A DNA stretch of 64,000 bases, from the NCBI GenBank assembly GCA_965228875.1, contig OZ245843.1, positions 1,160,616 through 1,224,615 of the forward strand, written 5' to 3'. The notes beneath the pieces are model-generated. The model ran no database searches. It saw only the letters and a program-made list of their open reading frames with translations, and had not been told where the DNA came from. Numbering within the stretch: the first letter of the stretch is position 1; every line of letters begins with the position of its first letter. The DNA is from Thalassobaculaceae bacterium. GTDB taxonomy: Bacteria; Pseudomonadota; Alphaproteobacteria; Thalassobaculales; Thalassobaculaceae. The position numbers and the translations under genes were made by a program. Positions 40,508 through 57,769 of the stretch are shown here, piece after piece.

Positions 40508-41299
40508 TCAGGAATCGGCCTCGCCGGGCTGCCAGGCCACGGCGCGGCGGAGGATCGCGTCGACGGCGGCATAAAGCGCCACCGCCAGGACGGCGAGGGT
40601 GAGGAGGGCGGCGAACATGAGGTCGATCTGCAGGCGGGCATTGGCGTGCAGCATCAGGTAGCCGAGGCCGGCGGAGGATCCGACCCACTCGCCGACCACA
40701 GCGCCGATCGGCGCGACGGCGGTGGCCACCCTGAGGCCCGACGCGAACGCCGGCAGCGCCGCCGGCAAGCGTACCCGACGGAACAGTCGGGCACCGGAGC
40801 AGCCGAGCGAGCGAGCGGCGTCGAGCCAGAGCGGATCGACCCGGCGCAGGCCGTCATACAGGGCGGCCGTGACCGGGAAGAAGATGATGAGGGCGGCCAT
40901 CGCCACCTTGCTGGCGATGCCGTAACCCAGCCACAGGACCAGGATCGGGGCGAGCGCGAACACCGGAATTGCCTGGCTGATGACCAGGATCGGCAGCAGC
41001 CAGGGCCGCAGTCGGCGCCATTCCGAGAGCATGACCGCGGTCGCCAGGCCAACCAGCACGCCGATCGCCAAGCCAAGCACGATCTCCAGCACGGTGATGG
41101 AGGCGTGGTGCAGGATGATGTTGGAACGCCTGACCCAGGTGACCGCGACCTCGGCCGGACCCGGAAGAATGAAGGCCGGCACGCCGCTCGCCCAGACGAG
41201 GATCTGCCAGGCGGCGACAAGCCCCGCGGCGATCAGCAAAGGTCGCAGACGATTGAGGAAGGCGGGTCCGGACGGACAGGCGGGCGCGCTGGCGCGCAT
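40508..41299 (-). CDS. thiX: ABC permease (thiamine precursor)
   Basis: ILPGP, IIFFPV, EAA-like loop, GAVVGEW..GLG; AAGGAGG RBS. Confidence 0.88.
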   Translation of the reverse strand: MRASAPACPSGPAFLNRLRPLLIAAGLVAAWQILVWASGVPAFILPGPAEVAVTWVRRSNIILHHASITVLEIVLGLAIGVLVGLATAVMLSEWRRLRPWLLPILVISQAIPVFALAPILVLWLGYGIASKVAMAALIIFFPVTAALYDGLRRVDPLWLDAARSLGCSGARLFRRVRLPAALPAFASGLRVATAVAPIGAVVGEWVGSSAGLGYLMLHANARLQIDLMFAALLTLAVLAVALYAAVDAILRRAVAWQPGEADS

Positions 41300-41309
41300 T
41301 CGAGCCTCC

Positions 41310-41400
41310 TTGCTCCCTACGCCGGTACAAACCGGATCAGGTTCCTGGGGTCGTCCGGGATCCGGACCTCTCAGCCGCACATGCGGCTCCCCCGAAGTGG
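41310..41400 (-). ncRNA. TPP riboswitch
   Basis: Minus strand GGGGAGCC..GGCUGAGA..ACCC..GAACCUGAUCCGGUUUGUACCGGCGUAGGGA directly above thiX. Confidence 0.93.
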
Positions 41401-41643
41401 CAGTCGCCACAATGGCCCGTGGCTTCGGCTTTGGCAATCCGTCTTGTGGGGCCGCAGCGCGGGCCGCCGACCTCCGGCGGTCGCGCAGTCGATGCGCGGA
41501 CTGGTTCGGAGCGCGCGCCCTTGGCAAGCCGTGCGACACGCTCCAGATTGCGCGTCATGGAGTCTGCGCCTTCCGAGACCGAAAACCCGATCGTCGACCC
41601 GGCCCTGACGGCGCGGCGGGATCCGACCTGGACGCAGGGGGTC

Positions 41644-54213: not shown

Positions 54214-54858
54214 TCAGAGCGCGCGGATCACACCGTAGATCACCCGGACCTTGTCGCCGAACTGCGGGTTTCCGGGCAAATAGGGCATCGCCCCGGTGGT
54301 CTCAAGGCGGGCGATCAGGCCTTCGTCCTCGAGGCCCGACAGCATGGTCTCGAAACCGCGAGTCTGCCAGAAGTCGTCGCGGCTCGTGAAGACCGCGACG
54401 CCGCCGGGGCGCAGAACCCGTATCCATTCGCGGCAGAGCGGCGCCGCCTCCACATAGGTCAGCACGCCGATGCACAGAACCCCGTCAACGGAATCGGCGC
54501 TCATGGGCAGCGGCCCGTTCAGGTCGACGGCCCGTAGATCGGCGTAGATCTCCTTGCTTCGGGCGATCTCCAGGCTGGACGCCGACATGTCGTAGCCGAT
54601 CAGCGGGCCGCCGCAGCCGGCCTCGCGCAGGGCCGCCCCGGTCATGCCGGTGCCGCAGCCGCAGTCCAGGACCCGGGCCGTCGCGAACCCGTCCAGGTGC
54701 CTGGACAGAAACTCCGCCGCGCGGGTCGGCGCCTCGTAGCCCCACTGCCTCAGATCCGCGTCGTAGTCGTCGGCCCAGGCGTCGTAGCTGGCGGCATTGG
54801 TCGTGCCGTCCATCGATACCTTGCCGTCGCCTCGGATGATCTTATCGAAATCGGTCAC
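54214..54858 (-). CDS. Class I SAM-dependent methyltransferase
   Basis: YDAWADDYD, VLDCGCGTG, RVLRPGG. Confidence 0.9.
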   Translation of the reverse strand: MTDFDKIIRGDGKVSMDGTTNAASYDAWADDYDADLRQWGYEAPTRAAEFLSRHLDGFATARVLDCGCGTGMTGAALREAGCGGPLIGYDMSASSLEIARSKEIYADLRAVDLNGPLPMSADSVDGVLCIGVLTYVEAAPLCREWIRVLRPGGVAVFTSRDDFWQTRGFETMLSGLEDEGLIARLETTGAMPYLPGNPQFGDKVRVIYGVIRAL

Positions 54859-55153: not shown

Positions 55154-56341
55154 TCACGCCGCCGCACCGCGGGCGAGCGCCTTGGCCGGATCCACGAACG
55201 GCACGGGCACGATGGCGGCCGCGCGCTGGCCCTCGGGCGTGTCGACGATGGCGCCGGTGCCCACCGCGTCGTCGCCCACCGGAGCAAAGCCGAGCGCGAT
55301 GTTGCGGTGCAGGCGCGGCGAATAGATCGCGCTAGTGACCACGCCTTCATGACCCTCACCCCCGAACCGTGCCGGCCAACGATGGAGATTGGCGGCGATC
55401 GGATCGCCAAGGATCTCGATCCCGACCAGCCGCCGCTCGACACCCGCCTGCGCGAGCCGTCGCAAGTCGGCCCTGCCGACATAATCCGCGTCCAGGTCGA
55501 GGGCGACCAGCCGCTCAAGCCCGAGTTCAAAGGGATTGTTCTCCGCCGTCATGTCGGCCCCGTAGGACAGCAGGCCGGCCTCGAGACGGCGGATCGCGTT
55601 GGGCCCGGCCGGCGCCACGCCGAGGTCGGCCCCGACCTCGAAGAGCCGCTCCCACAGGGCGTCTCCGAACCGGCCGTCGCGCAGGAAAATCTCGTATCCG
55701 AACTCGCCGGACCAGCCGGTGCGGGCGACCAGCATCGGCACGCCGTCGAGATCAACCTCGCGGAATCGGAAATACTTCAGCTCGGCGATCCAGTCGCCGA
55801 AGATGCGGGTCATCAGGGCGCCGGATTTTGGCCCCTGAACCTGTAGCGGCGATACATCGGGCTCGCCCACGGCGACGGCCCAGCCACCCGCGCGCGCCAG
55901 GGCCTTGACCCAGAGCAGCAGATCGCCGTCGGCCAGCGACATCCAGAACCGGTCTTCCGCGAGTTTCAGCAGGACCGGATCGTTGAGGACGCCGCCGTCA
56001 TGATCGCAGATCAGCACGTATTTGGCCTGACCGACCTGCATCTTCGTAAGGTCGCGCGGCGTGAGGTGCTGGACGAAGGCAGCGGCATCGGGACCGGCGA
56101 TCTCAACCTGGCGTTCGGCGGCGACATCCCAGACTGTCACGTCGCGGATCAGCGACCAGTAATCGGCCTCGCCGGCATAGGCCACCGGCATGTACATGTG
56201 ATTGTAGATGGTGAACGCCGACGCTCCCCACCGTCGGGTGGCGGCGTAGAACGGCGAGGTGCGAACCCGCGGCCCGAACACGATCTGCGCCGCCGGTTCG
56301 CCGACGATGGCGGGCTGCAGGGTATCGAAATGGTCTGTCAT
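55154..56341 (-). CDS. GcvT-family THF-dependent demethylase, DmdA-like
   Basis: [62 protein letters not shown]. Confidence 0.88.
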
Positions 56342-56632
56342 GTCGGCGGTCTCCTCCCTCTCGATCGCCGGTTTGCCGGCGTATTGCCTGTCGGCCTGTT
56401 GAGCGGAGGGTAGGGATGGTGACGGAACTGTCTGTTCCAGCTGCGACGAAGACTTCGGATCTGATGTAATTCTTTCAGATTGTTCGCCAGGCGACAGAGT
56501 GTTCGTAACTGGAACATGTTGTGATGTCGGAGTATTCTGATCCTGGTCAAATAGTCGGATCGGGGATACTCGTGGGCTGCTTTCGGTCACGGTTGGCTCC
56601 TTCATCGCCATGACGAGGGGCCGGTCGGTGCC

Positions 56633-56685
56633 GAAGCGCTTTAGCTTTTGTTGACCCGGAGCAAGCTGCCCCTCAAATCGCCGGG
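56633..56685 (-). ncRNA. SAM-II-like riboswitch aptamer 2 (proximal)
   Basis: CCCGG-C-GAUUUG-AGGGGCAG-CUUGC-U-CCGGG-UCAACAAAA-GCUAAA: P1 stem plus UUGC/GCUAA pseudoknot. Confidence 0.75.
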
Positions 56686-56727
56686 GGTCCGTCTCGGTGG
56701 ACCGGGCCGCAGTTCGATACGGGGACG

Positions 56728-56765
56728 AAAAAAAACCGCCCTCGAAAGCCGATGCGGCCGGGCGG
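56728..56765 (-). terminator. Intrinsic terminator between the two SAM-II-like aptamers
   Basis: CCGCCC..GCCG-CAU-CGGC..GGGCGG followed by U8. Confidence 0.8.
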
Positions 56766-56772
56766 ATTTGGA

Positions 56773-56827
56773 CCTCCGTTTAGCCGCATTTATTAAGCGC
56801 CCGCAAGCAGGATGCAAATCGGCGCTG
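56773..56827 (-). ncRNA. SAM-II riboswitch aptamer 1 (distal)
   Basis: AGCGCC-GAUUUG-CAUCCUG-CUUGC-G-GGCGCU-UAAUAAAUGCG-GCUAAA-CGGAGG. Confidence 0.85.
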
Positions 56828-56872
56828 ACTGCAATCTGGCGATCCGCCGCCCGGGGGTCAAGCGGAATCAGG

Positions 56873-57769
56873 TTACCGTCGACGGCCGGCTACGGTTTCG
56901 CGATGCCAGATGTAGAGGCCGCTGGCGATCACCAGGAGCGAACCCGCGAGGGTCCAGAGGCCGGGAACGTCCCCCCAGAACACCAGACCGAGCAGCACGG
57001 CCCAGACCAGGCTCGTGTACTTGAACGGACCGACGAGGCCGACCTCGCCGTACTTCAGGCTCTCGATCATCAGTCCTTGGGCGAAGGCGACGAGCACGGA
57101 CGTACCGAGAAACATCAGGAAGTCGAGCGGGCGCAAGGCGACCCATCCGAACGGCAGCGTGAGAAGGCCGGCGAACCCGACGATCGCCGTCGAGACGATC
57201 AGCACCATGAGCGTCGACTCTCCTCCCGTGCCCATCTTCCGTGTCACGATATCGCGCAACGCCCCGATCAGGGCGGCGGCGATCGGGATCAGAGCGACGA
57301 TGCGGAACATCTCCGGGGTCGGGCGGACCATGACCACAACGCCGGCGAACCCGACGGCGACCGCACTCCAGCGTCGCCAGCCGACCGGCTCCGCCAGCAG
57401 CAAGGCCGCCAGCGCGGTGGCGAAGATCGGGCCGGCGAAGGAGATGGCGATGGCGTCGGCGATGGGAAGCAGGGAGAGCGAGGTCACGAACAGGAACGTC
57501 GAACTGGCCATCAGCCCACCGCGGGCCAGGTTGAGCGGCCAACTCCGGACGCGCAGGACACCGCCACGACCGGTCGCAACGGCCCAGCAGTAGACCAGCA
57601 GAACCACCAGGCCGCCACGCAGCGCCAGGACCTGACCGACCGGATAGCGCTCGGTCAGCCATTTGGCGATCGCATCGTTGACTGTCAGGATGCCGGCGGC
57701 GGCGACCATCATGATGATGGCCTTGGCCGGGGCGGAGGAGCCGGAGGCGGGCAGGGCGGGAGCAACCAT
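56873..57769 (-). CDS. DMT (EamA) family transporter
   Basis: About 10 TM, LLAEPVGWRRW, VMVRP, PFKYTSLVW. Confidence 0.9.
   Translation of the reverse strand: MVAPALPASGSSAPAKAIIMMVAAAGILTVNDAIAKWLTERYPVGQVLALRGGLVVLLVYCWAVATGRGGVLRVRSWPLNLARGGLMASSTFLFVTSLSLLPIADAIAISFAGPIFATALAALLLAEPVGWRRWSAVAVGFAGVVVMVRPTPEMFRIVALIPIAAALIGALRDIVTRKMGTGGESTLMVLIVSTAIVGFAGLLTLPFGWVALRPLDFLMFLGTSVLVAFAQGLMIESLKYGEVGLVGPFKYTSLVWAVLLGLVFWGDVPGLWTLAGSLLVIASGLYIWHRETVAGRRR

Follow-up and report, generated by a model that had tools for sequence, protein, structure and literature searches.

A window of 64,000 nucleotides (nt) from a Thalassobaculaceae bacterium (GenBank assembly GCA_965228875.1, contig OZ245843.1, positions 1,160,616 to 1,224,615), the whole stretch of DNA analysed here, carries on its minus strand two matches to the SAM-II riboswitch family (SAM, S-adenosylmethionine), one behind the other, upstream of a DmdA-like aminomethyltransferase gene. 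The two aptamer matches, a terminator, their conservation, the alternative pairings and the gene family were observed directly. We propose that one leader RNA of ~237 nt, running from a conserved CTTGAC promoter to the start codon GTG 56590, contains two SAM-II riboswitches in series and represents the 'bi-mechanism' tandem type, here controlling the gene of a tetrahydrofolate (THF)-dependent demethylase of the DmdA clade. The first switch would stop transcription and the second would block translation when SAM is bound. The gene would thus be on only at low SAM, checked twice, which would fit an enzyme that supplies the synthesis of methionine and SAM with 5-methyl-THF and, further downstream, with methanethiol. 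We put the probability of this two-stage OFF/OFF explanation as a whole at about 70%; SAM binding, both switching directions, the single transcript and dimethylsulfoniopropionate (DMSP) as the substrate are what we infer in it.

Two predicted SAM-II aptamers in one leader

Leader elements were read directly from the minus-strand letters of the window, and the entire leader was found to lie within the 282-nt gap between an EamA-family gene and the next open reading frame (ORF). When positions 56400-57000 were scanned by E-value, the Rfam model SAM_alpha (RF00521) matched twice, at 56760..56835 (31.5 bits, E 2.8e-5; aptamer 1, of the canonical SAM-II type) and at 56620..56694 (23.5 bits, E 0.0044; aptamer 2, of a putative SAM-II subtype). 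The whole genome gave four RF00521 matches in all: these two sites (E 5.6e-5 and 0.0087 per genome) and two others, of 44.3 bits before a MetY-like gene and 34.2 bits before a CysG-like gene, both names being read from N-terminal translations without a family scan. The first-pass annotation, made from the letters alone, had described two SAM-II-like units on the minus strand whose P1 stems both pair, and on re-reading all of its coordinates were correct. Its assignment to the SAM-II type was upheld by the two covariance-model matches, although both are sub-gathering; the SAM-V model (RF01826), which it had also named, found no match anywhere in this genome.

In both copies, read and aligned to RF00521, a P1 hairpin encloses GAUUUG and GCUUGC and is followed by an A-rich L3 and GCUAAA. 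In aptamer 1, P1 is formed by AGCGCC (56826-56821) with GGCGCU (56801-56796), and the core comprises L1 GAUUUG (56820-56815), GCUUGC (56808-56803), the A-rich stretch and GCUAAA (56784-56779), after which CGGAGG extends to 56773; UCC (56812-56810) pairs with GGA (56777-56775) as P2a. In aptamer 2, P1 is formed by CCCGG (56685-56681) with CCGGG (56659-56655), and the core comprises L1 GAUUUG (56679-56674), a purine loop GAGGGGC (56674-56668), GCUUGC (56666-56661), the A-rich stretch and GCUAAAG (56645-56639), with U56660:A56646 as the junction pair and GCUUC (56637-56633) as a proximal candidate for P2a. An additional hairpin, P0 (56686..56703; GGUCC 56703-56699 with GGACC 56690-56686), abuts P1 of aptamer 2 and has a predicted stability of -7.5 kcal/mol in the window.

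The pairing scheme used for the SAM-II pseudoknot comes partly from the 2QWY literature. Another part follows PMC11508383. An H-type pseudoknot P2, between hairpin loop and 3' tail, was recognized in both elements, and covariation of the junction pair in aptamer 2 carries this assignment. The evidence for aptamer 1 is weaker, as its core is invariant and its P2a changes from AUCC:GGAU to CUC:GAG between genera. The GGAGG that follows aptamer 1 in the window is GGAUC in the other seven tandem-bearing genomes of the window's genus, and it is therefore better read as P2a and antiterminator material than as a Shine-Dalgarno (SD) sequence.

In a 12-sequence alignment (A1), the named helices were paired in 93.2% of cells, as against 38-59% for slid controls. 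Four pairs changed on both sides, a result equalled by 4 of 500 shuffles. P1 of aptamer 1 (P1a) was paired in 12/12 sequences yet never varied, so that its support is conservation rather than covariation; P0 was likewise paired in 12/12, with one change on both sides (GAUCC/GGAUC). The main support for the helices, as the alignment presents them, is conservation plus a few compensatory changes. Two points weigh against the assignment: most helices are nearly invariant in this closely related set, and both aptamers score below the RF00521 gathering score of 36 bits, a curated cut-off for membership rather than a structural feature. At gathering threshold, the whole window returned no SAM family and only a thiamine pyrophosphate (TPP) switch and two tRNAs. 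One could suppose on this ground that both sets of motifs arose by chance in intergenic DNA rich in GC, but the E-values, the excess of the named pairs over slid controls and the recurrence of the architecture in other genomes refute such an origin, to which we give practically no credence. Orthologous first aptamers score 36.7-41.9 bits on RF00521. Both elements are almost certainly SAM-II aptamers in tandem, with SAM as the predicted ligand.

Conservation of the tandem leader

The 63 genomes surveyed represent the order, which is one family, with 17 genera. A DNA search of 41 genomes (40 relatives and the window's own) recovered the entire tandem block in 11, and in 24 of the 63 the covariance model placed a pair of RF00521 matches on the same strand at a distance of 120-145 nt. 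One further genome (G006), in which the second copy was seen by alignment and regular expression only, brings the tandem to 25/63 genomes and 5/17 genera, so that conservation in relatives, a check proposed in the first-pass annotation, came out positive. The tandem was present in 8/11 genomes of genus g1, 1/1 of g4, 1/2 of g11, 5/6 of g13 and 10/10 of g2, and in none of the 12 other genera. It precedes a dmdA-like gene at 10 loci (g1, g4 and g11), metZ at 10 loci (g2) and a small conserved ORF (MIPF...) at five loci (g13; L015 and L025-L028).

At L015 (genome G022), the only g13 locus that was read further, the small ORF has 61 amino acids (aa) and is followed by a rhodanese-like gene. Two genomes of the window's genus (G002 and G010), which at 1.5 Mb each are far smaller, had no RF00521 match at all.

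A transcription terminator behind the first aptamer

Between the two aptamers lies a predicted intrinsic terminator (56728..56765), a branched GC-rich hairpin CCGCCC...GGGCGG (56765-56736) followed by U8 (56735-56728). This hairpin and its U8 had been noted in the first-pass annotation, and a hairpin abutting a run of 5-8 U follows the first aptamer in 25/25 tandem loci. In the window fold, the terminator hairpin alone has -18.1 kcal/mol (z -2.2). When the tail of aptamer 1 was left free, the minimum-free-energy (MFE) structure was instead an antiterminator of -23.6 kcal/mol (56752..56789), in which AUGCGGCU (56789-56782) pairs with GGCCGCAU (56759-56752) and CGGA (56778-56775) with UCCG (56766-56763). 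We propose that, with SAM bound, the 3' tail of aptamer 1 (AUGCGGCUAAACGGA) would be locked in the pseudoknot, the hairpin 56765-56736 with its U8 would form and transcription would stop, whereas without SAM the tail would pair with the 5' half of the terminator hairpin and allow read-through.

The folds of the relatives do not uniformly favour this switch: an antiterminator-type fold was the MFE structure in only 10/25 tandem loci, and in 9/10 leaders of g2 the terminator won even with the tail free. A terminator-type OFF design has been predicted for the SAM-II riboswitch of Sinorhizobium meliloti metZ (PMC9373788), and aptamer 1 with its terminator follows the same usual design. On the modelled folds, it is very probable that SAM-bound aptamer 1 ends transcription, making the first stage an OFF switch.

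The putative promoter of the leader has a -35 box CTTGAC (56857..56862, minus strand), invariant in alignment A1, and a -10-like CAGATT (56838-56833), with transcription probably starting near 56826-56828. An E. coli-type promoter scan and a simple terminator scan found no minus-strand site, the former because the -10 box is not E. coli-like and the latter because the hairpin loop exceeds the scan's loop limit of 8. In 25/25 tandem loci TTGAC lies 34-38 nt before AGCGCC/aptamer 1, and the U-run is separated from GAUUUG of aptamer 2 by 34-74 nt. This spacing is 34 nt in nine of the ten g2 leaders and 35 in the tenth, most of it filled by P0 and P1, which is too little to accommodate a second promoter. 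Given this spacing and the one conserved -35 box, both aptamers and the gene would be carried on one transcript. Among nine sequencing runs listed, those recorded as RNA each contained no more than 0.05 of the words sampled; the two runs that contained them well are of unspecified type.

Aptamer 2 and its relatives

We collected 45 sequences of the aptamer-2 type, the 25 second aptamers and 20 stand-alone copies, and parsed their features by regular expression. The stand-alone copies precede cysG, cysH and genes for DUF2061-like membrane proteins. These names, like metZ and dmdA-like for genes behind other switches of this type, were taken from N-terminal sequences without a family scan; the DUF2061-like gene presumably belongs with the sulfate-assimilation genes. 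The stand-alone copies comprise one in the window's own genome (L002, G000:C1:4257118-4257192, minus strand), L019 and L038-L055; they score 25-37.5 bits and are mostly sub-cut-off, some passing the Rfam cut-off at 37.0-37.5 bits.

P1 is CGCGG/CCGCG in 35/45 sequences and CCCGG/CCGGG in 10/45, a compensatory change (P1b). The base after GCUUGC is complementary to the base before GCUAAA in 45/45, as G:C in 18, A:U in 13, U:A in 10 and G.U in four, and this complementarity through four pair types supports the pseudoknot. A hairpin abutting P1 belongs to the MFE structure of 36/45 leaders, with unrelated stem sequences. Most members also carry a switch hairpin of 6-8 base pairs (bp), CCACGG(G)...(C)CCGUGG, between GCUAAAGCG and GCCC; in the dmdA leaders this hairpin is reduced and is followed by GCCCCUC.

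A pattern scan of species genomes found the hairpin form, among the matches listed, also in other alphaproteobacterial groups, including Kiloniellaceae, Dongiaceae, Nisaea and Minwuia. The scan is noisy and its counts are not frequencies; the full SAM-II core was present in at least 39 loci (39/120 among the matches listed). A T-run lies just upstream in 31 of 63 unique copies among the matches listed, and these 31 copies are probably tandem too.

The low score of aptamer 2, its atypically purine-rich loop and its unclear P2a could be taken to mean that only aptamer 1 works and that aptamer 2 no longer binds SAM, being either a duplicate that has decayed or structural spacing. Against such decay, the core motifs of aptamer 2 are invariant in the 25 tandem loci and present in 45/45 parsed sequences, although the parsing pattern itself demanded them, the pseudoknot junction pair co-varies in 45/45, and stand-alone copies occur before cysG and cysH, some of them above the Rfam cut-off. 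We consider loss of function in aptamer 2 very unlikely. The placement of aptamer 2 in a subtype that scores below threshold and has both an additional 5' hairpin and a switch hairpin is possibly new.

A different second element was seen in the leaders of metY (L001, in the window's own genome at G000:C1 about 3336100-3336290, minus strand; L018, L021 and L024). These leaders have a canonical SAM-II aptamer with a terminator and, ~100 nt further, a conserved element GGCUGCGUUU..hairpin..GGCCGCUAAAACGGAG-N7-AUG. An Rfam scan up to E 1 assigned this element to no family; it may be a second aptamer resembling SAM-II/V, either degenerate or unrecognized.

Proposed control of translation by the second aptamer

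Aptamer 2 would set the translation of the read-through RNA, its purine loop GAGGGGC acting as a mimic of the SD. Without SAM, the loop would hold the anti-SD strand GCCCCUC (56615..56621), and the SD AAGGAG (56602-56597) and start codon GTG (56590-56588; together 56588..56602) would stay free. With SAM bound, the loop would form the canonical P2a by pairing with the proximal GCUUC, and the freed GCCCCUC would pair with the SD region.

GCCCCUC is a perfect 7-bp partner of the loop, as the first-pass annotation had pointed out, and an imperfect partner of the SD region, so that it can pair with either. The predicted energies are -15.4 kcal/mol for the loop:GCCCCUC duplex, -5.3 kcal/mol for the loop with the proximal GCUUC and -13.2 kcal/mol for the SD-region hairpin GGCCCCUC...GAAGGAGCC. 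In G013 the SD (GGAGGGGCC) contains the whole loop motif GAGGGGC, and GCCCCUC therefore fits that SD perfectly. Where the switch hairpin is fully developed, its loop and its 3' strand show complementarity to the SD and the bases that follow, and this fit varies with the sequence of each lineage. Constrained folds of 19 tandem leaders gave an SD less accessible with the distal strand free than with it masked in 17, the mask covering 4/7 bases in g1-type sequences, so that the ON model, with a distal P2a, is understated there. In the hairpin subtype, pairing of the 3' half of the switch hairpin with its own SD region has a predicted mean of -9.87 kcal/mol, as against -9.19 for non-cognate regions, and 4 of 5,000 permutations were as low. 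A competition among loop, anti-SD and SD is well supported by these models.

The SD hairpin itself is modest (z -1.3), and the modelled states show only a partial difference in how accessible the SD is. Aptamer 2 might thus bind SAM and repress by means other than GCCCCUC:SD pairing, through withdrawal of a standby site (the A-rich L3/GCUAAA), mRNA decay or a C-rich loading site for Rho. A precedent is found in PMC9373788, in which the SAM-II riboswitch of S. meliloti metA controls translation starting 74 nt away as well as mRNA stability, and a second in-frame start exists here too, 249 nt downstream. However, the anti-SD complementarity recurs and tracks the sequence of each lineage (AGUCUCCC:GGGAGACU versus AAUCUCCC:GGGAGAUU), a 10-bp anti-SD fit, worked by hand, is present in L181, and the permutation test favours cognate pairs. 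Such a route of repression appears unlikely to us.

Several points weigh against the proposed OFF logic of the second stage. The proximal P2a is weak, consisting of 3 bp in the hairpin subtype and of 5 bp, two of them G.U, in the window. A SAM-bound pseudoknot into which a hairpin has been inserted could, by its topology, accommodate the loop:distal helix, the GGGC pairing core is nearly invariant, and 6/7 loop bases are constant among 12 tandem leaders; compatibility and near-invariance together would suit a part of the aptamer and hence ON logic. Moreover, the internal SD and ATG 56341 described below could let the core protein escape the second stage. SAM-bound aptamer 2 might use the distal GCCCCUC as its P2a, with the stretch from GCUAAAG to GCCCCUC as an insert, thereby opening the SD. 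Behind an OFF terminator, such an ON switch would make a band-pass or, if the pocket prefers S-adenosylhomocysteine (SAH), a gate for 'low SAM and high SAH'. In its favour, the loop pairs far more strongly with the distal than with the proximal strand, GGGC...GCCC and the intervening hairpin hardly change from one gene or family to another, which is what a part of the aptamer should show, and in one lineage a change in the loop is matched in the distal strand (GAAGGGC:GCCCUUU versus GAGGGGC:GCCCCUC). In addition, the distal strand follows the hairpin directly without a linker, a good stacking geometry, and both cysG and the downstream methyltransferase gene use SAM. On the other hand, members of the subtype stand before metZ, cysH and cysG, in many cases downstream of an OFF-type SAM-II terminator, and induction of these genes by SAM would be physiologically senseless; OFF followed by ON would leave almost no expression; all SAM-II core pocket motifs are retained; and a natural variant (L028, loop GCGC) breaks the distal pairing (-3.5 kcal/mol) while its proximal pairing is similar (-3.1 kcal/mol). 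The strength and near-invariance of the loop:distal helix keep this inversion alive, but as a decidedly unlikely one.

It would be equally improbable, on the same bound fold using the distal strand, that aptamer 2 stands for a distinct and widespread SAM-II subclass (P0, a purine SD-mimic loop, an inserted switch hairpin, mostly sub-cut-off scores) and hence for the first SAM-II-type ON or SAH-preferring switch. If true, such an aptamer 2 behind an OFF-type SAM-II terminator would subject a demethylase that produces methyl-THF to a natural gate, either a band-pass or one set by methylation potential (the SAM/SAH ratio).

We favour an OFF switch acting through the anti-SD as the second stage, a direction that the regulated genes make likely, though with less assurance than for the terminator. 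Aptamer-2-type switches precede metZ, cysG, cysH, DUF2061-like and dmdA-like genes, all of which feed sulfur or methyl groups toward SAM. The OFF model is preferred because metZ, cysG, cysH and the dmdA-like genes all feed the SAM pool, and because many aptamer-2-type switches follow an OFF-type terminator switch. The proximal GCUUC is also canonically placed, behind the same 2-nt spacer that the Rfam consensus has.

In the cysG leaders of g1, 7-11 nt of the 3' switch-hairpin strand were seen to recur as a copy at the start codon.

The putatively regulated gene and its start

The ORF at 55154-56611 matched the Pfam families GCV_T (E 1.1e-50) and GCV_T_C (E 7.6e-12), placing its product in the GcvT/aminomethyltransferase superfamily. 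Aptamer 2 lies beside the SD and start of this GcvT-family gene, whose best family match is DmdA, in line with the DmdA-like demethylase of the first-pass annotation. The closest solved relative is 3tfh (275 bits; next, 141), labelled a GcvT-like aminomethyltransferase in the structure table, which we take to be the Pelagibacter DmdA. The NCBIfam equivalog for DMSP demethylase (NF009133) scored 398 bits against a cut-off of 410, and it is because of these missing 12 bits, which count against a full DmdA assignment, that the gene is filed as DmdA-like only, with DMSP as its putative substrate. A SAM-II core, tested by regular expression and not by covariance model, lies upstream in only 8 of 80 homologous loci from other taxa, all of them in Thalassobaculaceae (>=73% identity).

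The first-pass annotation had named ATG 56611 as well as an AAGGAG/GTG start. ATG 56611 has no counterpart in the aligned leaders, whereas the pair AAGGAG-N6-GTG 56590 is conserved. A purine-rich SD-like box shortly before GTG/ATG is aligned in 10/10 dmdA-type leaders, 5-8 nt ahead in the eight of the window's genus. The alignment thus identifies GTG 56590, and not ATG 56611, as the true start.

From this start, an 83-codon in-frame N-terminal extension of low GC content (56342..56590, minus strand) precedes the DmdA-like core of 395 aa (55154..56341; Pfam GCV_T and GCV_T_C) and ends in an internal SD GGGAGGAG (56358-56351) followed by ATG 56341. The predicted forms are a 478-aa protein with the extension and the 395-aa core. 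In all five carrier genomes (the window's and those of L009-L012) the extension is exactly 249 nt long and open in frame 0, with 1-8 stops in the other frames; five other dmdA-type loci lack it. Its GC content is 0.45-0.53 in the window, compared with about 0.65-0.75 around it, and 0.45-0.55 over the window and L009-L012 together; it carries a conserved PKSSS..EQT-like motif. It has no Pfam match, is not a repeat and is unique in its own genome. The extension may serve as an in-frame leader or give rise to two isoforms, one long and one short, and its occurrence in five genomes is possibly new.

In L013 (G013), the dmdA-like gene has an in-frame TAA in the conserved NHMYMP motif and is a pseudogene or reflects an assembly error.

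Neighbouring features

The gene on the upstream side of the leader encodes an EamA-family transporter (56873-57769; Pfam EamA). Downstream of the dmdA-like gene, after a 295-nt gap, is a gene for a class I SAM-dependent methyltransferase (54214-54858, minus strand), an order also seen in L006-L008. The TPP riboswitch of the window is an ordinary one (41296-41403, minus strand; 65.5 bits, Rfam).

Discussion

In our assessment the leader is a real tandem SAM-II riboswitch of an already described type. The two-stage reading first put forward from the letters gains in silico support from the aptamers, the terminator, the SD-adjacent position of aptamer 2 and the alternative pairings; the limited recurrence of the antiterminator fold among the tandem loci counts against it. 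Its suggestion that the arrangement was undescribed does not stand, since 44 tandem SAM-II riboswitches have been reported (PMC9481103), and these loci may already be among them. Its background statement that SAM-II is usually single and translational, with SAM-II/SAM-V as the known tandem, needs qualification in view of the single terminator-type switch at S. meliloti metZ (PMC9373788) and the SAM-II tandems of PMC9481103.

The association with a gene of the DmdA clade, observed in Thalassobaculaceae only, is possibly new; among the papers searched in full text, none connects SAM-II with either dmdA or Thalassobaculum. Some marine Thalassobaculaceae probably put a DmdA-clade demethylase under double SAM control. 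Demethylation of the DMSP type would then be linked to the supply of methionine and SAM and not to the use of carbon, in contrast to the constitutive DmdA of Pelagibacter, whose levels are constant and for which no riboswitch is reported in the accessible portion of PMC5069961. For annotation, the second aptamers of such tandems and the stand-alone cysG and cysH copies fall under the Rfam gathering score and are missed, the gene start here would be GTG 56590, and the protein may carry an unannotated 83-residue extension. The aptamer-2 subtype would also be a compact natural three-strand design, composed of an SD mimic, an anti-SD and an SD.

Compared with RF00521, both aptamers share the P1 hairpin, GAUUUG, GCUUGC, A-rich L3, GCUAAA and the H-type pseudoknot, but both copies are sub-gathering, and aptamer 2 adds P0 and has a purine-rich loop in place of a pyrimidine-rich one. 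It also has 18 nt between GCUAAAG and the strongest partner of the loop, where related leaders carry the 6-8-bp switch hairpin. The SAM-II/SAM-V tandem of 'Candidatus Pelagibacter ubique' (Poiata et al. 2009, as cited in PMC9481103 and PMC5069961) likewise places a translational SAM aptamer behind a terminator-type SAM-II, on methionine-related genes of a marine alphaproteobacterium, but its second aptamer is SAM-V, whereas here it is SAM-II-like. In S. meliloti, according to Scheuer et al. 2022 (PMC9373788), metZ has a single SAM-II with a terminator and metA a SAM-II with an SD and two in-frame starts; these are single switches with starts 74 nt apart, whereas the present leader combines both modes and is followed by in-frame starts separated by 249 nt. 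The closest match is with the 'bi-mechanism' tandems among the 44 described by Sherlock et al. 2022 (RNA Biol 19:1059; PMC9481103), which have two SAM-II aptamers per leader, the first with a terminator and the second beside the ribosome binding site. The same order of a same-ligand pair in one 5' leader, terminator and then ribosome binding site, is found here in sequence and fold, and co-transcription would complete the likeness.

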